Below, in pieces: positions 26,447 to 38,505 of a stretch of 38,505 nucleotides of DNA. Positions within the stretch are counted from its first letter, which is position 1, and the number at the start of each line of letters is the position of its first letter. Position numbers and translations under genes: made by a program. The stretch comes from an uncultured Oscillospiraceae bacterium. GTDB lineage: Bacteria > Bacillota > Clostridia > UBA1212 > UBA1255. The stretch lies in contig CABROF010000013.1 of NCBI GenBank assembly GCA_902472555.1, positions 1 through 38,505 of the forward strand. Direction: 5' to 3'. A model generated the notes under the pieces. It searched no databases. It was not told the DNA's origin and saw only the letters and a program-made list of their open reading frames with translations.

Positions 26447-26542
26447 CCTCTCGGCCAAACCATATAACATACACTATTCAAGATCTACCATACGCAAGGC
26501 CTCCGGTATTGTGTTCGTTCGGCAGCATATGGCTGTATTGCT

Positions 26543-26571
26543 ACTATAACACCTTTCCCTTTCAGTGTCAA
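26543..26571 (-). promoter_or_regulatory. sigma-A promoter of the G3P dehydrogenase operon
   Basis: On the minus strand, TTGACA (26571-26566) is followed by a 17-nt spacer and TATAGT (26548-26543). Confidence 0.55.
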
Positions 26572-26719
26572 CGGCAGAATGAACCGTGGCTTTAGAGGAC
26601 CGCTTTCTGGACTTTACATAAAATTGGGTATTGAACATACCACTTCATAGTAAAATGAAAAGCAGAACCCGACTTTAAAAATCGTATTCTACTTTTCCTT
26701 TATTTTTAGTGGCAATTAA

Positions 26720-28435
26720 TTATTCAGTTATTTTTCTTCTTCCTATTGCGCAAATACCCGTTATAGCAATTAAAATCATAACGTATGTAATAACTTGCTG
26801 TCCAACATCTCCTGAATCAGGATTTTTCCCCGAAGCAGTGTCTGCCGCGCTCAGCGTTCCATAGTAATCCGTTTCAGTACCTACAATGCCAATATTTATT
26901 GCAGCAGATGCTTCCGTGTTCATTTTGCCATCTTTATATAAATGTGCATATTCAGATGTACCAGCTACACCATAAATACCAACCGCATTGTCAGTCTCTG
27001 TGATATTCTCTATAAGGAGTAAATATTCACCGGCAGTAATATCATTTTCAAATGTAAAATACAAATCGTGACTATCATAGAAATCTACAAAATCCACTGT
27101 TGCAAGGACTTCACCTTTAATGGACGCAAGATATGAGCCCTGCCAAGCATACAAAGACCATCTCAAGCTACCCACGTTATCGCTCCAGCTTGGGCATTTA
27201 ATGCTGATTTTATCAAAAGGCATACCTGTAGAAAACTGAATCGCATAACTGGAGGCAATCTGCAGAGGTATAGATTCTGCTGCAGTATCATAAAAAGGAA
27301 CGCGCTGCACGATTTTCTCAACAATCTCAAATCCACCATCATCATACTTTTCAAAAAGAATTCCACCATAAAAATCAACTAAAACCTCTGTGCCTGCCAT
27401 AAAGCATTCCACATATGCAGTTTCATCCTTTGTTTTAAGCTGCATTAAATTAGCCTTATCCCACTCTGGAGAAACAACTTCAAATACAATAATATATTCT
27501 CCCGCCGGCTGTGCTGACGAAAAGCTGTAACTGCTTTCGAGCCTTTTAGATTGTTCACTGCCACTGCTTACATCAAATGTGACAGAAGTCTGTGCAGCAC
27601 CTGATGTTGAAGTTTCGTAATCTTTATTCCATTTATATAAAGACGCTTTTAATGTAACTGTATCTTCCACATAAAAGCCCAGCATTCCACCTGTAAAAGA
27701 AGATTCAGCTTTAAATCTTACTGCAAAATCATCAAAAGAATGTTTCTCGTTTTTACTATTGAAATACTCCCAGAATAGATAGTCATTTGAATGAATATCT
27801 ATTATTTCAGAGGAAAATGTAATTCTCTCATTTACCAGTGGTTTAAAGCCGCCCGCACCCACATTCTCAAACATAATACCGCCGAAGAAATCAACATCAA
27901 CTAAATTGCCGGCAACATAACAATCCACATGATTGCTCAAGTTGTTAGATTTTAACTGTATAACAGCACCCTCTGGATTATTTACTTCAAATACTGCAAC
28001 ATACTCCCCCGCCGGCTGTGCTGATGGAAAAGTATAACCAGCGTCTATACGTATATTGCCAGCCTCACCGGATACAGGCTGAAATGATGCCGTTGCCTTA
28101 GGGGCAGCGTTAACTGAAGTTGCATAATCTGTATTCCACTGGTGTAATCTTACATTTATTTGTGTCGAGTTTCCCTCCACATACAGGGCCATCATACCTC
28201 CCACAAAAGATGATCCCGCCTTGAATCGCACTGCAAAGCTTGGAAACGTTCTGTCTGAAGGCTCGCTTCCAGTAGCCATCCAAGCATCAAAATACGGCCA
28301 ATATACATCACCTTTTCCGGAAGAGAATGTTACAAGTCCGTTTTCGGCCGAAACACTCATTCCAAAGCACGAAACAGTCACAATAAAAATTAAGACTGCT
28401 ATAGCCGTTAATTTACACTTACTACTTTTGTTCAT
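26720..28435 (-). CDS. cell-surface protein: signal peptide, three tandem copies of an uncharacterised ~110-aa module, C-terminal TM anchor
   Basis: I place the start at ATG 28435, with GAGGTGG upstream. The ORF-track start is GTG 28444. The repeated module contains FAVRFKA.SSF.GGM...YVE......L..WN.DY.TS....P......AQPAGEY..VFEV. The C-terminus is VITYVMILIAITGICAIGRRKITE. Confidence 0.65.
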   Translation of the reverse strand: MNKSSKCKLTAIAVLIFIVTVSCFGMSVSAENGLVTFSSGKGDVYWPYFDAWMATGSEPSDRTFPSFAVRFKAGSSFVGGMMALYVEGNSTQINVRLHQWNTDYATSVNAAPKATASFQPVSGEAGNIRIDAGYTFPSAQPAGEYVAVFEVNNPEGAVIQLKSNNLSNHVDCYVAGNLVDVDFFGGIMFENVGAGGFKPLVNERITFSSEIIDIHSNDYLFWEYFNSKNEKHSFDDFAVRFKAESSFTGGMLGFYVEDTVTLKASLYKWNKDYETSTSGAAQTSVTFDVSSGSEQSKRLESSYSFSSAQPAGEYIIVFEVVSPEWDKANLMQLKTKDETAYVECFMAGTEVLVDFYGGILFEKYDDGGFEIVEKIVQRVPFYDTAAESIPLQIASSYAIQFSTGMPFDKISIKCPSWSDNVGSLRWSLYAWQGSYLASIKGEVLATVDFVDFYDSHDLYFTFENDITAGEYLLLIENITETDNAVGIYGVAGTSEYAHLYKDGKMNTEASAAINIGIVGTETDYYGTLSAADTASGKNPDSGDVGQQVITYVMILIAITGICAIGRRKITE

Positions 28436-28934
28436 ATAACCCACCTCTGATTATTATAATTTGGCAAAAGCCATATCGTTCTTTATTTAAAATTTTATAC
28501 ATTTACAAAAAGTGCGCCAGTCACAAAACGGGTAAGTTCATTAAATTTTACTGAATAATTCAGTCTGTAGAGTATCCGGCAAAATTGAACGCGCAAAATA
28601 CTTACGAATAAAATATGCAAGCGTATATCTCCGGGCATGAAAAAGCTGTGAATTCTTTTGTCTCCATACAAAGCGGTTTCGGGGAGCCGCCAGCACATAG
28701 CTTTTCAAAAGCAACAGCCGGGCAATGGACAAATCTGCATTTAACATGATAATGTGTATTGTCGGACAAAATAACGTGCACTAAAACAAGGGCGCCAACT
28801 TAACGCCTCTACAGCGCTATGTTCTATGAAGAATATTTCTGCAGACTACTGGCATATTCTTTGTATTAAGTCTTACTGGCCTCCCTTTTATTTATGACAG
28901 GCATTCATTGTTCTGCCTTTTCAAGAAATCCATT

Positions 28935-29984
28935 TTATAAAGACCTCCTGTTTTTTTTCCGATATTCAAGGGGGGACATACCATACGCATTACGAAAAAG
29001 TCTGTAAAAATATTCATCGGACTGATAACCTACGTTTAACGCAATATCATTTACCTGCAATTCCGTATTTTTCAGCAGCATACATGCCTTTTGCAATCTA
29101 ATTTCACGGACAAAATCAACCAGACTTTTCTGAAGTGATTTACGAAGGATTCTCCTGATACTGGATTCAGAAAGGTGAAATTCCTCTACCAAGTCATTCA
29201 TCGATATATTGGAATAATGTACTTGGATATATCGTATCATATTTTCTTGCTTTTGTATTTCATCTGAATCTATTTTAAAATAAATTTTATCCGGCTTCTG
29301 TCTGAACATCAAACAAAAAATGACTCTCATCAAATTTTCCATAATATGCGGACAGTAATCCTGTTGGCGAATTGATTCCGAAAATAAGGTATATAACAAG
29401 GTTTCCAGTTCTGTCTCACCTTCTGTATGAAAACATATTACATTGTCTAATCTGCCAAAGTAGTAATTTTGATAAAAAAAGTCAGAAAGTTCTGCCTCTT
29501 GCTGGAATACATCAAAAAATGTTTCCTGAAATGTACTTTTTCTCACTAAAATATTCAGGACAATTGAAGTATCATCAAAAACTCCCAAAGAATGATACAT
29601 ACCCGGCGCAATAATGCACATATCTCCCCTTTTCATACGTATGGGATAGCCTGCAACCATATTTTCGCAGCAACCGGATAATACATACACAATTTCAAAA
29701 AAAGTATGCGTATGACAAAATAACGGATTATATCTGCAATGTTTTCTGACTGAGACATTGTTATTCTGGGAACCCAGCATCAGCTCCGATAAACAGGTTC
29801 CATCTTTCAAATCTATCATCTCCGGAATCCATACGTTCAAGGGTTGAAAAGGATCCTTTTTAAGCCGATCAGCAATTTCATATATGATTGCTTCATTTCC
29901 CGTAGCATTATAATAGTAGTTACGATAAAACAACTCGTCATCATCAAATGGAGAATAATATTTAAGAAGATCCTCACGAGTCAT
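28935..29984 (-). CDS. AraC-family transcriptional regulator (cupin sensor domain plus AraC HTH)
   Basis: The C-terminal AraC HTH is IRRILRKSLQKSLVDFVREIRLQKACMLL...YFYRLFRNAYGMSPLEYR. The N-terminal region is cupin-like. Confidence 0.8.
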   Translation of the reverse strand: MTREDLLKYYSPFDDDELFYRNYYYNATGNEAIIYEIADRLKKDPFQPLNVWIPEMIDLKDGTCLSELMLGSQNNNVSVRKHCRYNPLFCHTHTFFEIVYVLSGCCENMVAGYPIRMKRGDMCIIAPGMYHSLGVFDDTSIVLNILVRKSTFQETFFDVFQQEAELSDFFYQNYYFGRLDNVICFHTEGETELETLLYTLFSESIRQQDYCPHIMENLMRVIFCLMFRQKPDKIYFKIDSDEIQKQENMIRYIQVHYSNISMNDLVEEFHLSESSIRRILRKSLQKSLVDFVREIRLQKACMLLKNTELQVNDIALNVGYQSDEYFYRLFRNAYGMSPLEYRKKNRRSL

Positions 29985-30048
29985 TCAGGCAGTCCCCTTT
30001 TCTGTCATTTCTTTACAACTCACCATATCCCCAAAGTTTACACACCAA

Positions 30049-32595
30049 TTATACCTTCTTTTTCTTAGATTTACTATGGATCATAATTCCTGCGCTGCCA
30101 ATACCCGCAGCAAGGATACCGCCTCCGATAACCCAAGGCAATACTTCGTTATCTTTGTTCTCATCTCTAATGACCGACGGATTACCTGCTATAAACTGGT
30201 ATTTGTATCTGCCTCCCGGTGCTACATCACCGTGAACATAGAAATCCATTATGTCCCCTTCTGCTTGCATATGATCGGACCATTTAAAATTTAATATAAA
30301 GTCTCCGTTGCTTACTCCCAACATTACCCGCGGTATTTGAATCTGAATGCGGTTTCCAGATGCGCGGTACTGCACTTTGCCAACAGAGGTCCAATCCCAC
30401 CCGCCGTTAGAAGCCTCTAATGTAGTTATCGTATCACCTTCAGGCGTTTGGCGATTTACTACATATTGGAAGCTCTCCCAATTTTCAGTATTCGATATGC
30501 TTTCACCGTTAGCATAAACAACTTCAATAAAAAGTCTCATCCATGCAGGATCTGTGTAAGAAGTAATCGCTTCTGCTGTTTCAGCCATAAATGTTACATA
30601 TTCTTCATCATAGGCAACTTTCGCAAGCACAATATCATTACGCCCTGTTTCATCTTCATAAATCATATATTCGCCAGTCTCCGCATTTTTATATCCGCGG
30701 CAAGCTCTGTCAAATGTGTCGCCTGCGTATGACTCAAAAGCATGCGATACATTTGTCCACTGATCTTCCGCAGAATCCAAATCAATAGAAATAATGTCTG
30801 TTTGTGCGGTCACAGCATCTGTACCTTTGAATTTTCTAATATATGACACCATCTGATAATAATAATAATCCTTCATTTCTCCTGCCGACGGTTCAATATC
30901 TCGGCTTCTGTTATCAGTAAAATTATCAATAAATGCATTTGAAACGCCCCAGAAGTCTTCATATCTGCCTGCTGTCCATTCATTCCACCCGGTGATAAAT
31001 ACAAATTCCGGGTCTATTTCCAATACACGTTCCCACTCAGCAGCAAAATATGCTCCGTAGAATTTGGCATTTTCACGTGTATCATAACAATTCTCTACCG
31101 GCATATAATCTCTGGAGAAAACGGTATCAACTTGATTGCTGAAAGCAGTCAAATGCGTTTCTTTACACCAGTTATGTGAAACAGATACCGCCATCTGCTC
31201 AGGAGTTCCGTCACGATTGTAGTTCACAATTTGTGGATATGCCGCTATCCAGTTCCAAAGCTGGTAGCCTTCTTGAAAAAACTTATCTGTGTTGGCTAAT
31301 ACCAAAGGATTTCCGTCATGATCTTGAACCAGAACATGATCCTCTGACTGCGCATGATTGATTACTCTATATTGGAAAAATTCAATGATCTCCTGATCCG
31401 TAGGATCAAGGCTATATAATTCTCCCGGATAAGCCAGAATTAGTGGTTTTCCCTTCCAGTAAAACCATAAATCCTTGTATAATTCTTGTGAATATATATT
31501 TTCATACAGTGTACGAAGCTGAGTTGCTGCAGCCTTAAAATCAAACATGGGAAGCATAAAAGCAACGTGAGGGGTTTTTACTCCGTCAGCGCGGGCTTCA
31601 GCCCAGCATTTCATGAGTGCAAGTGCATCTGCCAAGAATGTTTCCTCTCCGTTTGTATTATCAAAAAACACTACATCAACCTGTGCATCTGCCAGAAGCT
31701 CTGCCTGACGGCGGAGCACCCACTCATCAGAAGTTCTATAGTAACCCCATATCGGTTCGTCCCAAAAATAAGTAGCCGCATTGCCCCATCTCAGATCATT
31801 GTAGTTATTAATTTCTATATCGTCATACCGGTCAAGAATATCAGAAACATTCATAAACCCATTATTAACATGCATTGAAGTGCTGTGCCATGTGTGAAAA
31901 AATAATCCCACATACTTACCTTCACGTTTCGTATTTGTATATGAAACCTCTACTTGACGATTTAACCCATCGGTCACAGCCCAAGTGTCTGACGATGTTA
32001 CGTATTCATTCCGATTATCAGAAATAGCCTCGAGCTTTCCCGTTTGTTCTAAATTTAAGCGTACACGTATATTCCCACCTCGCGGGGAAGTGTTAAAATA
32101 TGTTCTTGTATTTTCTAATGCCGGTGAGACAAGCTCCAGCTTAACACCATTTTTCGAGTCATCAAGAACTAACACATATTCTCCTGCAAGCAAGGCTGCG
32201 CCACCAGAATCTACGCAGGAAAGCGCAACCCAGCTATCTTCCGAAAATCCACTTAACTCTTTTGCTATTACAGGATGTGCCGTAACTGTTTTGGAAAAGT
32301 TACCATTCCATCTATAAACAGATGCTGTCATTTCCGGCACTCCTTTAGCTGCCACAGAATCAATATAGATTTCTATTGATTTTATAGCTGCCGTAACCTT
32401 AAATTGAATAGCATATTGTTGGCCGGAAAGAGATACCGCACGATCCATGCTTGATAATTCGTTATATAATGCCAATTGTTCTGAAGCAGCATATACACAT
32501 TGACCTTCTATTCCCGACAATGTTAACATGGATACGGATGACATTGTAAACATTACGCATAATATTTTACTCATATACTTTCTGATTCTGCTCAT
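30049..32595 (-). CDS. large anchored surface enzyme: signal peptide, N-terminal copy of the shared uncharacterised module, TIM-barrel glycoside-hydrolase-like core, C-terminal beta-rich region, TM anchor with KSKKKKV tail
   Basis: N-terminal signal peptide. YRWNGNFSKTV...LLAGEYVLVLDD aligns with the module in the neighbouring proteins. The core (FFHTWH..., ADAQVDVVFFDNTNGEETF, ITGWNEWTAG) resembles TIM-barrel GH-like families. The C-terminus is VIGGGILAAGIGSAGIMIHSKSKKKKV. Confidence 0.55.
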   Translation of the reverse strand: MSRIRKYMSKILCVMFTMSSVSMLTLSGIEGQCVYAASEQLALYNELSSMDRAVSLSGQQYAIQFKVTAAIKSIEIYIDSVAAKGVPEMTASVYRWNGNFSKTVTAHPVIAKELSGFSEDSWVALSCVDSGGAALLAGEYVLVLDDSKNGVKLELVSPALENTRTYFNTSPRGGNIRVRLNLEQTGKLEAISDNRNEYVTSSDTWAVTDGLNRQVEVSYTNTKREGKYVGLFFHTWHSTSMHVNNGFMNVSDILDRYDDIEINNYNDLRWGNAATYFWDEPIWGYYRTSDEWVLRRQAELLADAQVDVVFFDNTNGEETFLADALALMKCWAEARADGVKTPHVAFMLPMFDFKAAATQLRTLYENIYSQELYKDLWFYWKGKPLILAYPGELYSLDPTDQEIIEFFQYRVINHAQSEDHVLVQDHDGNPLVLANTDKFFQEGYQLWNWIAAYPQIVNYNRDGTPEQMAVSVSHNWCKETHLTAFSNQVDTVFSRDYMPVENCYDTRENAKFYGAYFAAEWERVLEIDPEFVFITGWNEWTAGRYEDFWGVSNAFIDNFTDNRSRDIEPSAGEMKDYYYYQMVSYIRKFKGTDAVTAQTDIISIDLDSAEDQWTNVSHAFESYAGDTFDRACRGYKNAETGEYMIYEDETGRNDIVLAKVAYDEEYVTFMAETAEAITSYTDPAWMRLFIEVVYANGESISNTENWESFQYVVNRQTPEGDTITTLEASNGGWDWTSVGKVQYRASGNRIQIQIPRVMLGVSNGDFILNFKWSDHMQAEGDIMDFYVHGDVAPGGRYKYQFIAGNPSVIRDENKDNEVLPWVIGGGILAAGIGSAGIMIHSKSKKKKV

Positions 32596-32632
32596 ATGCT
32601 ATTCCCTCACAAAATAAAGTTATTAATAGATT

Positions 32633-33385
32633 TTATTCTATACCCGAATCTGAGATCGGTCCATACAGGTTGGCAGGCGTTTTACTGTAGAAAACAGTTG
32701 TAACAATCGAAACGCCTTCCCATATTTCTTCATCCAGATAAGCTCTTGTATATTCAAAATCTTTTTCCAAGTAATATACGCCTGAATTGTGCAATGCTTT
32801 TGCGGATCGATAATATGCAAGCAAAACATATTCACCTGCCGGTAATTCTACACCGTCTTCAAATACAACCTTCGCACACGCTCCATCTTTCCAGCCTTCA
32901 GTAGAAACCTCTACAACTGGATCTCCCCAAACAGTGTTAAAATAATCTTCTTTCCATTCATATATAAAATAGTCAACAGAGTATCCATCAGTTTTTGTCC
33001 ATGTAGGGGAATGGAAGCCAATACCGTAAAACGGCGCAGTTGCACAAAATTGTAACGCAATTTCAAGTCCGGTACCGCACTGCGCTTTTAGTATAGACAG
33101 ATCAACTTCAGAATTAAAAGGAACCTCAATCCCTTCTTCAGAGATTATACCACCTGAGTAATCCGGCCTTTCTGTCGGAGTAGGTGTGGCTGTAGGTTCG
33201 ATGGTTGCCGTCGCTTCAGCAGTTGCAGGTAATGGACTTGAACCCACCCCGCCGGTAGGCTGAGTTGACGCTGTTGCGAATGATCCTGTCGGGGTCGTGA
33301 CCTTATCATTATCTGACTGACAACCTGACAGCAAAAAACAACCTGTCATAATGAGTGTTAAAAGTATTGCCGTAAACTTCTTCAT
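32633..33385 (-). CDS. lipoprotein with a Thr/Pro-rich linker and one copy of the shared uncharacterised module
   Basis: I place the start at ATG 33385, with AAGGAG 7 nt upstream. The sequence MKKFTAILLTLIMTGCFLLSGC has a lipobox. The module appears as IYEWKEDYFNTV...LPAGEYVLLAYY. Confidence 0.65.
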   Translation of the reverse strand: MKKFTAILLTLIMTGCFLLSGCQSDNDKVTTPTGSFATASTQPTGGVGSSPLPATAEATATIEPTATPTPTERPDYSGGIISEEGIEVPFNSEVDLSILKAQCGTGLEIALQFCATAPFYGIGFHSPTWTKTDGYSVDYFIYEWKEDYFNTVWGDPVVEVSTEGWKDGACAKVVFEDGVELPAGEYVLLAYYRSAKALHNSGVYYLEKDFEYTRAYLDEEIWEGVSIVTTVFYSKTPANLYGPISDSGIE

Positions 33386-33582
33386 TATAAACTCCTTTCT
33401 CTGCTCGCCCAAAAATAAATTTTTGACAAGGCTTCATTTAATTAATTCACTTATATTTTATCAATATAAATTTTAAAAAAAATAAATATTTCACTCAAAA
33501 AGTATAGATACCTACTGAACTTTTCAGTCAGCATTGGTGCCACTTTAACTATTACCTTTCAGGAATTCTACTTTCCTTTATG

Positions 33583-33888
33583 TTACAAAAACGGTCCCTG
33601 CGGAAAACTTGAAGACCGGAGAAATGGCCTCCCGGTTCTGTCTCCAGCATTTTTAGCGTCTTTACTTCCGTTGGCGCCCGATAAATCGTCTTTAGATTCC
33701 CACAGATACGCCTCCATCTCAGCCTCCGGTATTTCCTTGATCGTTCCGCCAAGAAGATCCTTCAGGGCACTCCGGATATTCTGTGTGCGTTTGATGCCAT
33801 ACGTCTCAAAAAGCCCGCGGATAATGTTACAGTTTCCCGGCCATGCGTGTATAGAAAATATATTGACATTTTTAAAAAATACGATATA
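33583..33888 (-). pseudogene. start-less ORF remnant of unknown family
   Basis: About 100 codons are open on the minus strand with a protein-like composition (...HAWPGNCNIIRGLFETYGIKRTQNIRSALKDLLGGTIKEIPEAEMEAYLWESKDD...), but there is no start codon or RBS. It lies in AT-rich intergenic DNA. Confidence 0.25.
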
Positions 33889-33956
33889 TTAATTAACAGA
33901 TTATTGCGTGTATGTCTTAAATGTTTGTCTGTCGATCAAGATAGAAGGTTTGTAGT

Positions 33957-34133
33957 ATGAGAAAATTAATTTTATGTATTATCTTAACTCTTATTTCTGT
34001 CTCTTTATCATTAGTTGTATGTCTTGCTGCCTATAATGACCCCAGCCCTCTGCCGGGATATTGGAATTTTACCGCAAACAGAACCTATACGGTTAACGGG
34101 AATATGGATGTCTATTATTATTTCAGTTGTTAA
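33957..34133 (+). CDS. small (58-aa) signal-peptide or membrane-anchored protein
   Basis: GAAGG lies 8 nt upstream of the ATG. The sequence is MRKLILCIILTLISVSLSLVVCLAAYNDPSPLPGYWNFTANRTYTVNGNMDVYYYFSC. It is below the 60-aa cut-off of the ORF track and sits directly upstream of the decayed ABC cluster. Confidence 0.4.
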   Translation: MRKLILCIILTLISVSLSLVVCLAAYNDPSPLPGYWNFTANRTYTVNGNMDVYYYFSC

Positions 34134-34232
34134 TTTCAGCTGTGATACAAGACCTTAAACTTTTATTAAATTCCATATGATTCACGCAATGATAAAAGGT
34201 CGGCAGACAAACATTTTCCGGGAGGGATTTTT

Positions 34233-35341
34233 TTGAAGCTTTTAAAGCTGGTATTTATAAACTTCAAACAAAGTTTTACTTCTTTTCATTCTATATTGAT
34301 TATATTTATGATCGAAAGTATCATTTCAGGAGTTTCATTTATTTTTTGTACGGAAATATTATGCCGTATATGAATCAAGATTACAGCAGCTATTTTTCTT
34401 ATAAAACCTGCGCCGTAATGTTAACGCCAAAGCACCGCAGCTTTGATGCGTCCTATATTGAAAAAATCTATCATTCTGTGTCCGCATACCCTATTTGTGA
34501 TATTGTTTTTATTTCTGATCAGACCTGTACATATACAGCAGCGGATTTCAGTATGAATTTGCAGCTTTGCGGGACGTATACAAACAGAATCGATACACAC
34601 ACATACAAGATATCGGGCCGGCAGTACTTCAGAGACAAAGAAATCATGAATAAAGAGAAAGTTGCCTACATCCCCTGCGTATATATGCAGGAAATGTCTG
34701 AAAGCGTGCAGTACAAAAACGAAAATTTATCCGTAGTCGGCGTTTATTCAAGTGAAAGTTCATCCTACTGCTATATTCCTACGCCTTTATTGATTGAACT
34801 TTCTCCTGAAATTCTGCAAATAAATTTTATATTTGAGGATCCGCTGTCCGCGCAGGAGTTTCGTCAGTTCACATCAGATTTTTCTCAAATAGAGGATATT
34901 TCATATATCGAGATGGTAAACTCAGAAAAAAGAGAAATAAATTTACAGTATTCTATAATTGAAATCGTGCTGCTGGGCATACTCTTTTGTATTTCTATGG
35001 TCTCGTTTATCTATTTTATGAAATATATTGATGATAAAAATCGCTATATTTCTGTAATATACATGTTATCCGGCGCCGCAAAAGAACGAATTGCCGAAAT
35101 TTTATTATTGCAAAAGCTATTTACCATTTTATTGATCAGCGGGGCAAGTATTATGATACATGCAATTCTGCAGAAAGCAGTTTTTGCAAAAATCAACTTT
35201 TTATCAAATATTTATTACTCGGCCCTCGACTATATGATTATTTTTCTTTTTATGATACTGCTGTCCGTATTTACTATGCTTCCGCAGCTTATTTCATTCA
35301 TGCGAAGGCCGATCAATACAAGTAAAACGCGTAGCTGCTAA
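34233..35341 (+). pseudogene. FtsX-family ABC transporter permease, frameshifted
   Basis: There is a TTG start with GGGAGGG upstream. The N-terminal TM1 (MKLLKLVFINFKQSFTSFHSILIIFMIESIISGVSFIF) stops at 34371-73. The rest of the protein continues in another frame from 34346, and the frame break is at a T-run around 34341-34347. Confidence 0.55.
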
Positions 35342-35436
35342 AGGAGGTGAGGCGGTGCAGGCAGCATCTTTCACATAGAAAAATTTTTTGGCTAAGCCGG
35401 CCGAAGCGCAAACTTGCGAAAGGATGAATATTTATA

Positions 35437-36244
35437 ATGAAATTTATAAAACTGTGTCTGAAATTTTATAAAAGAGTCCGGCTTCCCGCGCTGCTTCTGA
35501 TGACCGTTCTATTCATTGCACAGTTGGTATTTGTCTATTTTACGGGCATATACCGTTACTGCATCTATACCGAACAGAAGCTGACGGATGCACATATCGA
35601 TCAATCCGTGTATGTAATGTATATGAATAATCCATTCGATGTGATCTACGCGGGTGAAACGTTAAAGCTGCAAAATCAGATTAAGACTATGCCCGGCGTC
35701 AAGGATATTTTAGCCTATAAACGTTTTTTAGGAAGCACTTATCAGGGTACCGGGCAAGGAATTCTATTTTACAATGACTCTTTTCTGTCTTTTTTCACTA
35801 TGGATGAATACGGGACAGAGGTCTTTTCCGATACCGGCTTAGATCATAACCGCGTCCAGTGTATCGCGGTTGGCCCGTTATCTGACAGTGACCGCCGCCG
35901 TATCCTTTCTATGTATGGCAATTCTGTTTGTTCATAAAAAGATGGAGGACTTTGCCGTATACTATTTGTGCGGCTGCAGCAGAAGAAAAAGTTACGCGGT
36001 TATGGTCTGTTCACTGTCCTTTATCGGTTTCGCCGCCGGCCTGATAAGCAGTGCTGTTACCGCTTTTTATCCGTATTTAGGCAGAAAATATGGTTTCTAT
36101 ATTTTATACAGTATCATTGATCGAAAAAGCCTTTTATTTATTTTAGGCTACTTCGGTCTTGTTCTGTTAATATCGCTGCTGGTTCCGTTTTTATTGTATC
36201 GGAAAAAAACGACGATAGAACTGAAAAGGAGATTTGAATCATGA
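35437..36244 (+). pseudogene. second FtsX-family ABC permease, frameshifted, and probably shortened
   Basis: The N-terminal part (35437-35937; MKFIKLCLKFYKRVRLPALLLMTVLF...) and the C-terminal FtsX-like part (35870-36244) are in different frames and overlap. Confidence 0.5.
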
Positions 36245-36596
36245 TTGAAATTACACAGCTCAATAAATATTATACGGTAAACCGCAGACGGAATGATCTG
36301 CGTACAGTCCCCCGCGAAGGAACAAAATACCATGTACTGAAGGATCTTTCTCTAACTGTCCGGAAGGGCAGCGTCAGCGGGTAGCGATCGCCAGAAGTAT
36401 TGTGAATCATCCTTCTGTGGTTCTGGCAGATGAACCTACCGGCGCTTTGGATACGCAGACAGCGAAGCAGATTATGGAACTGCTTCGATCATTAAATGAC
36501 AGCGGTATTACAATTATTATTGTAACGCATGACCCTTTGGTTGCAGACTGCTGCCGTACCGTAGCCGAAATCTCAGACGGTATTCTCTCGCAATAA
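36241..36596 (+). pseudogene. ABC transporter ATP-binding protein remnant (Walker A / Q-loop region deleted, 1-nt insertion in the signature motif)
   Basis: AAGGAG plus an ATG overlaps the upstream stop (ATGA). The frame reads MIEITQLNKYY...VLKDLSL and then jumps directly to ctgtccggaAgggcagcgtcagcgg, which is LSGGQRQR with one extra A. The rest follows in another frame: [24 protein letters not shown]...IIIVTHD (Walker B and H-loop). Confidence 0.6.
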
Positions 36597-36847
36597 CATA
36601 TTCGTTTTTCTGATCAATCTTTGCAGCCGCCTCCCGAATATACGGGCCGCGCTGTCCCGCGGATAAACCTACATATCGCGGATAGACCTACACATATAGA
36701 ATGCCGATGTTCAGCGGATGAAATTTCCTGTCAGCAGCAGGCGGTGGCCGGCCAAAATCAGATTTTACGCCGCGCCTCTCCGCAGAGTGATAAAAGGCAA
36801 TAAAGGGTCCCTCCCTTATTTCGCCTATTTGATCAATAAAGATCGGC

Positions 36848-38335
36848 TTAACCCTCGCGGTATTCACCACAAACCGCCTCTGTCCCGCATTCGATAAAAT
36901 ATTTGCGGATAAAATATGCGGGCGTACAGCTCCAGGCGTGGCAGTAGCTGTTAATCCGATGGGATTGATACGGGGAAGCCTCCGGATCCTCCGGTATGTA
37001 TACCTCCCAGAAGCAATCCGCGCCCATTTCCGCCATCCCGCCCCAATAGGCGCAGACGGTCCGCATGGCTTCCTCCATTTTTCCGCATGCAATTAGGGCC
37101 TCTATATAAAAATGCATAGTATATGGGGTTACGGTCCGGATTGCCTCCCTGCAGTTCTGCAGATTGTCTATAACCTCTGCATTTTCATCGCGGGTCAGGA
37201 TCCCGGCCAGAATCATCCAAATCTGCGACGCCCAGGAAACCTGCTGCGACGGCCCGCTGACAAACAGCCTGCGCTTCTCGTCATACAGCCCCCTTGCCGC
37301 CTCAGACAGGCGCCGGATATATCCGCGCAAAGCCGCGGCCCGGCCTTCATCTCCTATGATCTCCGCCAGCCGCAGCGCTTTTTTCAGCATTGCCACCGCG
37401 GTACCCTGGGCCGCAGCCGTTTTATCCAACGCATCGCACCAATCAATAAAATAATATTTGGGCTGCACCAAGCCCTGTTCGTCCGCCGCTTCCGCGGCAA
37501 TCTCGGCCTGACGGTAGGCCGTAGGCCAAAGCTCCTGCAGCAGCGGCAGATCGTGGGCATATTCGTAGCAGTCATACAGTACGCCGATAAAAAACAGCGC
37601 GTAGTCATGCAGAACCCATGCCTGATTTTTCAGCATCGGCTCATGATATACCGCAGAACTCAAGCCGCCGTTGGGATACGGCAGACCGGCAAACAGGTAC
37701 AGACAGCGTTTTACCAGATCATAATTGCGGTAGGTATAAAAATTTGTTTTTGCCTGCAGATATAAATCTCCCAGCCACAGGCGCCTGTCGCGCTTGGGCC
37801 CGTCCTCGAAAACCGACTGCATACAGTTGCGTAGTGTGCGCAGCGCAATGGTATCGATGTGCACCAGCAGCAGGTCAGTGCCCTCCGGCAGCGGCTCCAG
37901 CCGTGTCTCATCTGCGGAAGTAACCGCAACGCAATAAGCCTGCTCATAACGCACGCGGTATGCGGTATTTCCGGGAAATGTAATTTTTACGTACCGGAAC
38001 GCATAACGCCGCGGCAGGACGATTTCCCCGGAAAAATAGTCGAGACAAATGGTCTCCTTCTGTATCCAGGTACTGCTCAGGCCGCCGGTATAGGTATAAT
38101 CGTCTAATTCAAAAGGCATTTCCGCAAATAAAAGCTCCACTACCAGCGGGGAGTCCGGCGTTTGATCCGCTGCCACGGACAAATGAAAGCTGCCCACCAG
38201 ATGCGTGCCGAAATCCAAGGTAAAATGATCTCCGCTGCGCATATACCGCCCGATGGGTTCGGTTTCTGACAGCGGAAAATACTTTTTTTCAAACAGCCGC
38301 GGCTTCAGCGTCCGCGCTTTTTCCAAAAAATCCAT
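36848..38335 (-). CDS. GH78-like six-hairpin glycoside hydrolase (alpha-L-rhamnosidase-type catalytic domain); 5' end uncertain
   Basis: The motif KRDRRLWLGD matches the GH78 R-E/D-R-x-x-W-x-G-D catalytic motif, with an N-terminal beta-sandwich and a C-terminal (alpha/alpha)6 region. The frame stays open upstream through TTG 38491 to the window edge, so the true start may lie beyond 38505. Met at 38335 is the first ATG. Confidence 0.5.
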   Translation of the reverse strand: MDFLEKARTLKPRLFEKKYFPLSETEPIGRYMRSGDHFTLDFGTHLVGSFHLSVAADQTPDSPLVVELLFAEMPFELDDYTYTGGLSSTWIQKETICLDYFSGEIVLPRRYAFRYVKITFPGNTAYRVRYEQAYCVAVTSADETRLEPLPEGTDLLLVHIDTIALRTLRNCMQSVFEDGPKRDRRLWLGDLYLQAKTNFYTYRNYDLVKRCLYLFAGLPYPNGGLSSAVYHEPMLKNQAWVLHDYALFFIGVLYDCYEYAHDLPLLQELWPTAYRQAEIAAEAADEQGLVQPKYYFIDWCDALDKTAAAQGTAVAMLKKALRLAEIIGDEGRAAALRGYIRRLSEAARGLYDEKRRLFVSGPSQQVSWASQIWMILAGILTRDENAEVIDNLQNCREAIRTVTPYTMHFYIEALIACGKMEEAMRTVCAYWGGMAEMGADCFWEVYIPEDPEASPYQSHRINSYCHAWSCTPAYFIRKYFIECGTEAVCGEYREG

Positions 38336-38505
38336 TCCTGTAAAATTGCTCCCATCTTTCGTCTGTATTCCAATGATATTATAAAATACAGGCTTTTTAA
38401 TTTTTCTGCGGCAGGCTCCGTAAAGCCCGGTCCCGCAGTTTTCGCAGTTTCTGCAGTTTCCGAAATATCCGCAAGTCCGCAATGTCCGCAATCGCAGAAG
38501 CCGCA

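Follow-up and report, generated by a model that had tools for sequence, protein, structure and literature searches.

An unnamed module shared by three neighbouring proteins of an uncultured Oscillospiraceae bacterium travels with an unnamed GH99-like enzyme family and is probably a new sugar-binding module

Most Clostridia of the rumen and hindgut have not been cultured, and a large part of their glycan-degrading machinery goes by the annotation "hypothetical". In this work, we present the analysis of one such locus, situated in a window of 38,505 nucleotides (the whole stretch of DNA analysed, contig CABROF010000013.1). Several described systems resemble it in part. With the SusE/F-like surface glycan-binding proteins of Bacteroidota it shares the display of lipid-anchored beta-sandwiches, encoded beside the glycosidase that they would serve and under a regulator of the sugar type; however, there is no homology, the host here is a gut or rumen member of Clostridia, and the low-GC island that holds the locus has neither a SusC/D pair nor a transporter. 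Carbohydrate-binding modules (CBMs) of families 6, 35, 36 and 32, together with the CBM-like N-terminal domains found in CE2 and CE20-type esterases, are beta-jelly-rolls, like the module described below, but show no detectable sequence relationship to it (identity at most 14%). Glycoside hydrolase family GH99 has in common with the enzyme-like protein of the locus, and with its family, a (beta/alpha)8 barrel and an ...ITxxNEW... strand motif, to which this family adds a conserved C-terminal beta-sandwich and an N-terminal module.

A lipoprotein, an anchored enzyme, a multivalent protein and an AraC regulator were reported to lie together in the initial annotation, and all these ORFs are present as described, on the minus strand. 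The multivalent protein p574 occupies an ORF at 26720..28444, the called gene starting from the ATG at 28435 (571 aa), and consists of a signal peptide, three modules, a C-terminal transmembrane helix and an RRK tail. The regulator (28935..29984), with a cupin sensor domain and HTH_18, belongs to the AraC family as proposed, matching Pfam HTH_18 PF12833 (5.9e-21), HTH_AraC PF00165 (1.4e-14) and AraC_binding PF02311 (4.2e-6). Next to it is the gene of p848 (30049..32595), a membrane-tethered enzyme-like protein of 848 aa, composed of a signal peptide, a module, the core, a C-terminal beta-sandwich, a C-terminal transmembrane helix and a Lys-rich tail. The C-terminal ends, ...GKNPDSGDVGQQVITYVMILIAITGICAIGRRKITE in p574 and ...VLPWVIGGGILAAGIGSAGIMIHSKSKKKKV in p848, each a hydrophobic helix with a basic tail, are read as transmembrane anchors; upon reading of both sequences, the LPXTG motif of a sortase anchor was found in neither. 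The lipoprotein p259 (32633..33385; the ATG at 33385 gives 250 aa, and the ORF at its longest is 32633-33412 on the same strand) contains a signal peptide, a Thr/Pro/Ala-rich linker of ~60 aa and one module, and is identical to P0001. Its lipobox L-S-G-C (...FLLSGC/QSDN), read from the sequence, fits the pattern [LVI][ASTVI][GAS]C; in orthologues P0003-P0005 AG or SG precedes the Cys, and the Cys followed by K/Q-S-D is conserved.

The initial annotation had placed the shared module three times in p574, once at the N-terminus of p848 and once in the lipoprotein, and an independent profile, built solely from 58 module copies of other organisms, recovered all five copies and no other ORF of the window. 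Independent-HMM E-values were 2e-8, 3.6e-8 and 2.5e-25 for p574 copies A (27830..28345, aa 34-205), B (27290..27829, aa 206-385) and C (26810..27289, aa 386-545), 5.7e-31 for the p848 N-terminal module (31996..32487, aa 37-200) and 1.3e-16 for the lipoprotein module (32636..33142, aa 91-259 when the 259-aa form is numbered); all five lie on the minus strand. In pairwise BLASTP of the five segments, copies A and B share 43% identity (E 5e-44), copy C and the lipoprotein module 26% (E 7e-7), and the p848 and lipoprotein modules 26% (E 1e-3). The other pairs are weak (E 0.1-10), yet their register is unchanged. Such values could by themselves be taken for similarity due to chance or composition, without a shared domain, but to this explanation we assign virtually no probability: it is already refuted, because the independent profile detects all five copies, while homologous copies elsewhere number in hundreds and in two confident AlphaFold models the module comes out all-beta, its strands in a similar order. 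The five copies are thus confirmed as one genuine, recurrent, unannotated domain.

Exhaustive HMMER search of 1.84 billion representatives placed the module family at 839 clusters (50% identity, E<=1e-3), and at 486 clusters under the stricter threshold of E<=1e-10. Carrier proteins contain from one to nine copies, combined with CBM6, CBM35, F5/8 type C (CBM32), GH20, GH97 and GH116-like domains, as well as with dockerin, SLH and T9SS tail domains. Most often the module is partnered with the core of p848, which is likewise unannotated, and one or two copies were found in 113 of 120 p848 homologues. As is expected of a CBM, the module is a discrete fold appended to carbohydrate-active enzymes, the fusions being those with the GH99-like core, GH20, GH97 and GH116-like domains; it is found with dockerin too. 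Certain proteins are made of 2-9 copies alone, some with a dockerin besides, and one protein of Pseudobacteroides cellulosolvens has two modules and a dockerin.

That the module could not be matched to any known family, as had been stated, held in the HMM searches: the window proteins carrying it belong to no family in Pfam-A, NCBIfam or PHROGs (p574 and p259 each having none in Pfam or NCBIfam), and profile searches of PDB sequences gave no match to the module. No name for any family member was found in the sources searched, nor any publication on a member. One might still suspect a highly divergent member of a described family, for example of the CBM6/35/32-type galactose-binding-like domains or of DUF5126 (PF17166, the Eb-like domain in SusE-like proteins), which we regard as very improbable. 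No copy in the window matches CBM6 PF03422, CBM35 PF16990 or F5/8 type C PF00754 even at E<=1, and the same three were absent at E<=1 for 71 diverse copies, among the 25 families listed of a total of 32; within that same range DUF5126 was absent too, and no weak Pfam match was consistent across the 71 copies. CBM6, CBM35 and F5/8 type C do adjoin the module elsewhere, as separate domains. The DUF5126 lead was not upheld, the window proteins being unmatched and the single-domain score staying below the gathering value of 27 bits. Taken singly, modules of the P0131/P0144 subfamily score 12.5-15.2 bits (E 0.02-0.14) over profile positions 3-46 of 104 only, less than half of the model, and the whole-protein scores are weak matches summed over 4-9 repeats, a summing that inflates unrelated families as well. 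Furthermore, DUF5126 is a beta-barrel of ~93 aa with a monobody-like structure (PMC8211771), which does not fit a jelly roll of 125-165 aa.

This length, with a profile of 128 positions and an AlphaFold model of 168 aa, corrects the initial annotation, in which a shared module was rightly recognised but given as about 100 aa. The (L/Q)PAGEY motif had been taken for its terminus, wrongly, because in the AlphaFold models three or four further strands of the same sandwich come after it. The predicted fold is a jelly-roll beta-sandwich, as in most CBMs (lipoprotein module model m6dd75acda404, pLDDT 85.6). The expectation of a CBM-like fold is supported in this general form. The nearest structural neighbours in Foldseek were viral jelly rolls and PHR domains instead of CBMs, and no PDB match reached E<=1e-3. 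For the jelly-roll CBMs, that of BT0996-C (PDB 7zvo) included, the Foldseek E-values were all above 1e-3. The jelly rolls of phi812 DUF4815 protein (9euf), PBCV-1 P1v1 (8h2i) and Bxb1 gp29 (9d93) are 8-12% identical. Neither a PHROG match nor a tblastn match in phage genomes was found for the module, and its context, instead of that of a phage baseplate, tail-tip or capsid jelly roll, is a glycan-utilisation-like cluster on a chromosome.

Of the AGEY letters, only G and Y are the same in all 71 diverse copies; F, Y, W and E recur in 90% or more of them. The top-conserved residues (F, Y-x-W, G-E-Y) map to strands and to the strand-to-helix turn and have the look of a protein core, so that an aromatic binding platform conserved in the family was not identified. 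Such core-like conservation, as well as the generic jelly rolls among the closest folds, would suit a structural accessory or spacer ("X module"), which steadies or orients the barrel and projects the proteins off the membrane without a ligand of its own. The p848 model agrees with this, as its block-mean pLDDT is 90-98 over aa 41-230, with no low-confidence linker before the core, and its pTM is 0.88. We nevertheless consider the spacer function unlikely, as a support domain of one enzyme would not be expected alone on the flexible stalk of a lipoprotein, or in proteins of just 2-9 copies, some with a dockerin; the module is also found with several unrelated GH families, and its distinct subtypes hold fixed positions.

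Subtypes became apparent from long-form enzymes of ~1150 aa, which have a first (distal) and a second (core-proximal) module in one chain. The lipoprotein module scored 51 bits against the first-module profile and 29 against the second, p574 copy C scored 126 bits against the first, and the p848 module 83 bits against the second. By this profile match the lipoprotein module and copy C are of the distal type and the p848 module of the core-proximal one. In the related loci L005, L006, L007/8, L013, L015 and L017 the gene immediately upstream of that of the enzyme encodes a small single-module protein, and AraC comes after the enzyme in L005 and L006, as in the window; in L005 a two-module protein is located after AraC. 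The tight conservation of the lipoprotein-enzyme gene pair (37-nt gap in the window) and the fusion of both subtypes in long-form enzymes, a classical hint of physical interaction, may speak for protein-protein assembly, in which the lipoprotein, p848 and p574 would dock via their modules in the manner of cohesin-type scaffolding. We rate this as a decidedly improbable role.

The core of p848 (about aa 205-600) is a (beta/alpha)8 barrel, and the C-terminal beta-sandwich comprises about aa 625-805 (AlphaFold pLDDT 90.1 for the whole model). The protein itself was present as the initial annotation had it, but as an "enzyme" it is unannotated, with no Pfam, NCBIfam or PDB sequence match, and resembles GH99/GH71 by fold alone. 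We found 333 homologues, and in GTDB species representatives the family is encoded at 575 loci or more. CBM6 or dockerin domains are present in some of the homologues. Foldseek against PDB put GH99 first (E 3.5e-7, 12% identity) and GH71 next, with 4ad1 and many GH99 chains at E 3.5e-7 to 1e-5 and target TM-scores of 0.5-0.6. Pfam GH99 (PF16317) did not match p848 even at E<=1, let alone at the gathering threshold; 2 of 10 homologues reach 15.9-17 bits against the cut-off of 33, and in 3 of 10 the sub-threshold Pfam GH99/WbsX matches sit at the GWNEW motif. We describe the core as an unnamed family of extracytoplasmic TIM barrels, distantly like GH99/GH71/WbsX.

In BxGH99 the catalytic carboxylates are three residues apart, E333 being the base and E336 the acid (PMC6055899). 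Residue E539 is invariant in 74 p848 homologues and position +3 is A542, nearly invariant. In the only sequence alignment obtained, a weak one with MANEA (E 0.33), ITSFNEWHEG pairs with ITGWNEWVAG, so that NEWHEG of MANEA corresponds to NEWTAG of p848 and to NEWVAG in the consensus of the family, and the GH99 carboxylate pair was not found. The family thus seems to lack the second catalytic Glu of GH99, having Ala instead, and for this reason hydrolase activity of p848 is itself an assumption.

Since an unnamed module travels with an unnamed GH99-like enzyme family, we think it probable, with confidence of a middling degree, that this is a new CBM-like module family serving a new glycosidase-like family, and that the function of the module is most likely non-catalytic glycan recognition. 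The homology of the copies, their novelty relative to the libraries searched, the predicted fold, the domain architectures, the synteny and the topology signals are results of the analysis; that the module binds a glycan, which glycan this would be, that p848 is a hydrolase and how the genes are regulated we infer. The core-proximal module of p848, predicted to pack rigidly on the barrel, would probably extend or position the substrate-binding surface. The lipoprotein would show one distal-type module on a long flexible Thr/Pro-rich stalk, and p574 would present three modules from its C-terminal membrane anchor, both acting as surface glycan-binding proteins which catch the same polymer at the cell surface. 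A breakdown product may cause AraC to turn on the lipoprotein-enzyme-regulator operon, and the cytoplasmic GH78-like six-hairpin protein, which accompanies the enzyme in related loci and in the window, may finish the imported product.

Going further, the module and the p848 core could tentatively be regarded as two new CAZy-type families acting as a pair, a proposal to which we give a somewhat less than even chance. The CBM family would then comprise two or more positional subtypes, the core-proximal and the distal among them, and the GH family, on a GH99/GH71-like barrel, would retain a single carboxylate of the GH99 pair, the first, and so use different catalytic machinery. On this proposal the pair occurs widely in Clostridia of ruminants and the gut and is present in Bacteroidota too, and its substrate is possibly a rhamnose-containing or alpha-linked polymer, a guess made because the GH78-like partner recurs (L006, L007/8, L009/10, L014). 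Two annotation gaps are linked here, a module family of ~840 clusters and an enzyme family, both unnamed in Pfam-A, NCBIfam and PHROGs. Should the module bind and the core cleave a glycan, both would be new CAZy families, hundreds of genomes from the gut and rumen could be annotated better, and a specificity not yet described, or a variation on the unusual mechanism of GH99, might emerge. In conceptual terms the gain is modest, as new families of CBMs and GHs turn up regularly; the practical one is a short, well-defined set of expression constructs.

The whole module cluster lies, together with broken FtsX-type and ABC-ATPase genes, in a low-GC island (26450..36500, approximate limits from GC composition). 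Composition profiles gave a GC of 0.33-0.46 for the island and 0.54-0.59 for flanking genes, the right edge being gradual (0.45-0.49 over about 36200-36800); per-gene GC was compared between L001 and the orthologous contig L005, uniformly 0.35-0.42. This island of ~10 kb was probably acquired horizontally. A Gram-positive polysaccharide-utilisation locus had been suggested. A regulator, an enzyme-like protein and putative binders are in place, but the island has no sugar transporter, only the broken FtsX-type and ABC-ATPase genes, and thus is a partial polysaccharide-utilisation-like cluster at best. In L007 a sugar ABC importer (one SBP_bac_8 gene and two BPD_transp_1 genes) lies downstream. 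The intact GH78-like gene of the window is outside the island. Between AraC and p574 a decayed remnant of a GH78-like 3' end was found (28583..28713, minus strand), which matches the last ~40 aa of GH78-like proteins and contains a stop as well as a change of frame (tblastn E about 1e-3, in a tiny database). A 45-nt direct repeat links the remnant (28595-28639) with the 3' end of the intact gene (36896-36940) at 80% identity, and L006 has an intact GH78-like gene where the window has the remnant.

The module proposed in the initial annotation to be common to three neighbouring proteins proved to be real. These proteins are p574 (ORF 26720-28444, minus strand), the enzyme-like p848 (ORF 30049-32595, minus strand) and a lipoprotein (ORF 32633-33412, minus strand, its 250-aa form starting from 33385). 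BLASTP aligned copies A and B of p574 with 43% identity (E 5e-44), copy C with the lipoprotein module with 26% identity (E 7e-7) and the p848 N-terminus with the lipoprotein module also with 26% identity (E 1e-3), while the remaining pairs among the five segments were weak, yet in register. An independent profile, built from 58 module copies of other organisms, recovered all five copies: p574 aa 69-178 (2e-8), 238-350 (3.6e-8) and 398-508 (2.5e-25), p848 aa 58-179 (5.7e-31) and lipoprotein aa 117-228 (1.3e-16), in agreement with the earlier count of three copies in p574, one at the N-terminus of p848 and one in the lipoprotein. Among six-frame ORFs of the window the same profile gave no match beyond these three proteins. 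A chance similarity of proteins sharing no domain is refuted by these matches, and its probability may be regarded as negligible. The extent of the module had been underestimated: its size is 125-165 aa instead of about 100, and the AGEY strand does not end it, as three or four further strands come after it in the AlphaFold models. In a wider alignment of 71 diverse copies the G and Y of AGEY never vary, and the F, Y, W and E of the module are conserved in at least 90%.

The earlier failure to match the module to any family was upheld by database searches, since no named family was found in Pfam-A, NCBIfam, PHROGs or PDB sequences. Scans of p574, p848 and the lipoprotein with the first three collections gave nothing, 71 module copies scanned singly against Pfam at E<=1 agreed on no weak family, and PDB sequence searches with module profiles A1 and A3 gave chance-level matches only. 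A weak link recurred to one named family only, DUF5126, the Eb-like beta-barrel (about 93 aa) of SusE-like proteins (PMC8211771), which reached above-threshold whole-protein Pfam scores in two distant multi-copy proteins, P0131 (nine copies) and P0144 (four copies). Single modules scored no higher than 12.5-15.2 bits, and their matches covered no more than positions 3-46 of the 104-position profile; the whole-protein scores are thus weak partial matches summed over 4-9 repeats, and unrelated families were likewise inflated in the same repeat proteins. We rejected DUF5126 as a partial, repeat-inflated match of different fold and fold size, its scores being probably an artefact of repetition, and it is very improbable that the module is a hidden member of a known family. 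Literature on GH99-like families, WbsX as a hydrolase, new rumen CBMs and the accessions of named carriers yielded nothing relevant.

AlphaFold modelled the lipoprotein module, from the 71-copy alignment, as an all-beta sandwich with two short helices (pLDDT 85.6, pTM 0.83), and a similar all-beta arrangement was predicted for p848 aa 40-182. The structural neighbours, with their scores, were the phage phi812 baseplate DUF4815 protein (12.5), PBCV-1 P1v1 (12.1), Bxb1 gp29 (10.1), PHR domains of BTBD2 (3no8) and MYCBP2 (3gbw, 3hwj) (8.2-9.6), N-terminal CBM-like domains of acetylxylan and PVA esterases (9.3), the Cwp84 lectin-like domain (9.0), the CBM of BT0996-C (8.9) and CBM35/15/36/8/32/6-type modules (6.5-7.7). 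Identity to each of them was at most 14% and Foldseek returned no PDB chain at E<=1e-3, which points to a new sequence family on a common, predicted jelly-roll scaffold; such a scaffold would be compatible with a CBM and is not diagnostic of one.

When 1.84 billion cluster representatives were searched exhaustively with HMMER, the module was detected in 839 clusters at E<=1e-3 and in 486 at E<=1e-10. Exhaustive searching was needed, as a word-indexed homologue search with the five-copy profile turned up no more than 10 proteins and left the copies on enzymes undetected. Among the 143 proteins newly listed in the top 150, 67 have one copy, 50 two, 20 three, five four and one nine; a p848-like core is also present in 39 of the 143. 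Elsewhere the module accompanies F5/8 type C, CBM6, CBM35, GH20, GH97, GH116-like, PKD, SLH, dockerin and T9SS tail domains. Two carriers come from cultured bacteria, Pseudobacteroides cellulosolvens (WP_050753782.1, two modules and a dockerin) and Paenibacillus sp. (WP_187102261.1, two modules with PKD, F5/8 type C, a GH116-like region and SLH), and the names of both proteins derive from domains other than the module.

For subtype assignment, profiles of the first (distal) and second (core-proximal) modules of long-form enzymes of about 1150 aa were scored on the window copies. p574 copy C (126 against 43 bits) and the lipoprotein module (51 against 29 bits) scored higher with the distal profile, the p848 N-terminal module (37 against 83 bits) with the core-proximal one. 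The distal-profile scores indicate that the separate lipoprotein is the likely counterpart of a module fused to the enzyme elsewhere, and this fusion/fission link would imply that lipoprotein and enzyme act on the same thing.

The word-indexed search gave 333 homologues of p848, nearly all "hypothetical" and mostly from rumen or gut Clostridia MAGs, some of them with CBM6 or dockerin; 113 of the 120 listed carry one or two modules. At least 575 loci with a p848 core were found in a GTDB scan, which beyond Clostridia included Dyadobacter, Prevotellaceae, Parabacteroides and Thermoguttaceae; many of these are core-only forms, and among 100 core ORFs 45 carry a module. The AlphaFold model of p848 (pLDDT 90.1, pTM 0.88) consists of the module, a (beta/alpha)8 barrel and a C-terminal beta-sandwich. 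Foldseek against PDB placed GH99 endo-alpha-mannosidases on top (E 3.5e-7, 12% identity, target TM-score 0.5-0.6) and GH71 next, and PDB sequence searches with p848 and enzyme profile A2 gave chance-level matches only. Sub-threshold Pfam GH99/WbsX matches appeared in 3 of 10 homologues, exactly at the GWNEW motif, which in p848 reads GWNEWTAGRY (aa 535-545; family consensus GWNEWVAGRF). In a weak alignment with human MANEA (E 0.33), ITSFNEWHEG was paired with ITGWNEWVAG, the invariant E539 aligned to the GH99 general base, and the position of the GH99 catalytic acid (+3) was occupied by Ala, A542 being nearly invariant; the roles of these two GH99 residues have been described (PMC6055899). Invariance extends to many further acidic residues (D307, D312, E466, D557, D566 and E568), so that the catalytic machinery of the p848 family may differ from that of GH99. 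The Foldseek, Pfam and MANEA evidence thus describes a core which is alike to GH99 in its predicted fold, yet does not group with GH99 in the membership tests, and we regard it as a putative new enzyme family, GH99-like by fold only.

The C-terminal beta-sandwich of p848 (window 30181-30723, aa about 625-805) is conserved in the enzyme family and gave no Pfam match; its invariant positions are W706, GG..W (731-735), FKW.D (770-774), Y786, G789, AP (792-793) and R796. Tandem arrays of two or three paralogous p848-like cores per locus (L038, L058, L081, L083, L063, L087, L090) span Clostridia and Bacteroidota (Dyadobacter, Agriterribacter), which suggests sub-functionalised enzyme sets.

The AraC-family regulator (28935-29984, minus strand) had been assigned correctly, on solid evidence (HTH_18 5.9e-21, AraC_binding). 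Intergenic gaps are 37 nt between lipoprotein and p848, 64 nt between p848 and AraC and 490 nt between AraC and p574. A terminator-like hairpin 3' of AraC (28807-28791) is a pattern match only, from a scan whose terminator-like sites were no more numerous than in shuffled controls. As read from the sequence, the lipoprotein has a signal peptide ending with the lipobox LSGC, its Cys kept in three orthologues, and then about 60 aa of Thr/Pro/Ala-rich linker. Both p848 and p574 start with a signal peptide and end in a hydrophobic helix with a basic tail, and neither contains an LPXTG motif. By these topology signals all three proteins are predicted to be extracytoplasmic and membrane-tethered. 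The C-terminus of p574 (window 26720-26810) contains the sorting-like signal GKNPDSGDVGQQ, then a hydrophobic helix, then RRKITE. This arrangement is similar to the tripartite signals of sortase type, but LPXTG is absent from it, NPDSG being a candidate non-canonical sorting motif.

In related loci of other contigs and genomes the enzyme is immediately preceded by a small protein with one module (L005, L006, L007/8, L013, L015, L017), the enzyme being 75% (L005), 60% (L006) or about 50% (L007/8) identical to p848. AraC comes after the enzyme in two of them (L005, L006), and L005 has in turn a two-module protein comparable to p574 after AraC. L006, L007/8, L009/10 and L014 encode a six-hairpin protein of GH78-like type after the enzyme or AraC, and L007 also has a sugar ABC importer. 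This enzyme/GH78-like pairing recurs in the same organism just beyond the high-coordinate end of the window, where a second enzyme paralogue, P0020 (2268-4796 of the longer contig L001; 842 aa with its own module, 57% identical to p848, native GC 0.52), is encoded directly upstream of the GH78-like gene (36848-38491) whose end falls in the window.

The observation of a shared module was therefore confirmed, and its interpretation as glycan-binding was partly supported; we favour, with some confidence, a putative glycan-binding domain. The lipoprotein, whose single module sits on a long stalk, and the three-module p574 would capture a polymeric glycan at the surface of the cell; p848 would cleave it, aided by its rigidly attached proximal module, AraC would sense a product and a cytoplasmic GH78-like enzyme would process imported material. 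Against glycan binding count the conserved module residues, which look structural, and the absence of a flexible linker in p848; that the module is a purely structural accessory domain we hold to be unlikely. The best structural neighbours of the modelled fold are not CBMs, and the island harbouring the cluster has no transporter, which are further points against glycan binding; a protein-protein assembly domain appears less probable still. As a sequence family the module is new, of a kind already familiar, the accessory jelly-roll module, and it is coupled to a new putative enzyme family. The finding is useful and testable, and would be of little surprise to a CAZyme specialist.

The whole cluster is part of an island of low GC, about 10 kb long (about 26450-36500; GC 0.33-0.46 versus 0.54-0.59 of flanking genes). 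The contig of the orthologous cluster L005 has a uniformly low GC of 0.35-0.42, its DnaE gene included, which suggests, as the simplest reading, that the island was acquired horizontally from a lower-GC Clostridia lineage. Rfam and tRNA scans detected no tRNA or RNA element at its borders, and neither an integrase nor flanking repeats were found. A mobile-element origin was rejected, as the island had no DNA match to plasmids, tblastn of the module had no match to phage and long flanking repeats were missing. On its plus strand follow an FtsX-like permease ORF (34346-35341), two more (35437-35937 and 35870-36244) that a frameshift seems to have separated from a single gene, and an ABC ATPase gene in two pieces (36241-36384 and 36402-36596) without Walker A region. 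They appear to be pseudogenes, and of an exporter of the MacB/FtsX type rather than of a sugar importer. Between AraC and p574 there is a decayed GH78-like remnant of the last 40 or so codons (28583-28713, minus strand), with a stop and a frame change in its tblastn matches to GH78-like proteins and a 45-nt repeat of 80% identity to the 3' end of the intact GH78-like gene (36896-36940). An intact GH78-like gene occupies the position of this remnant after AraC in L006.
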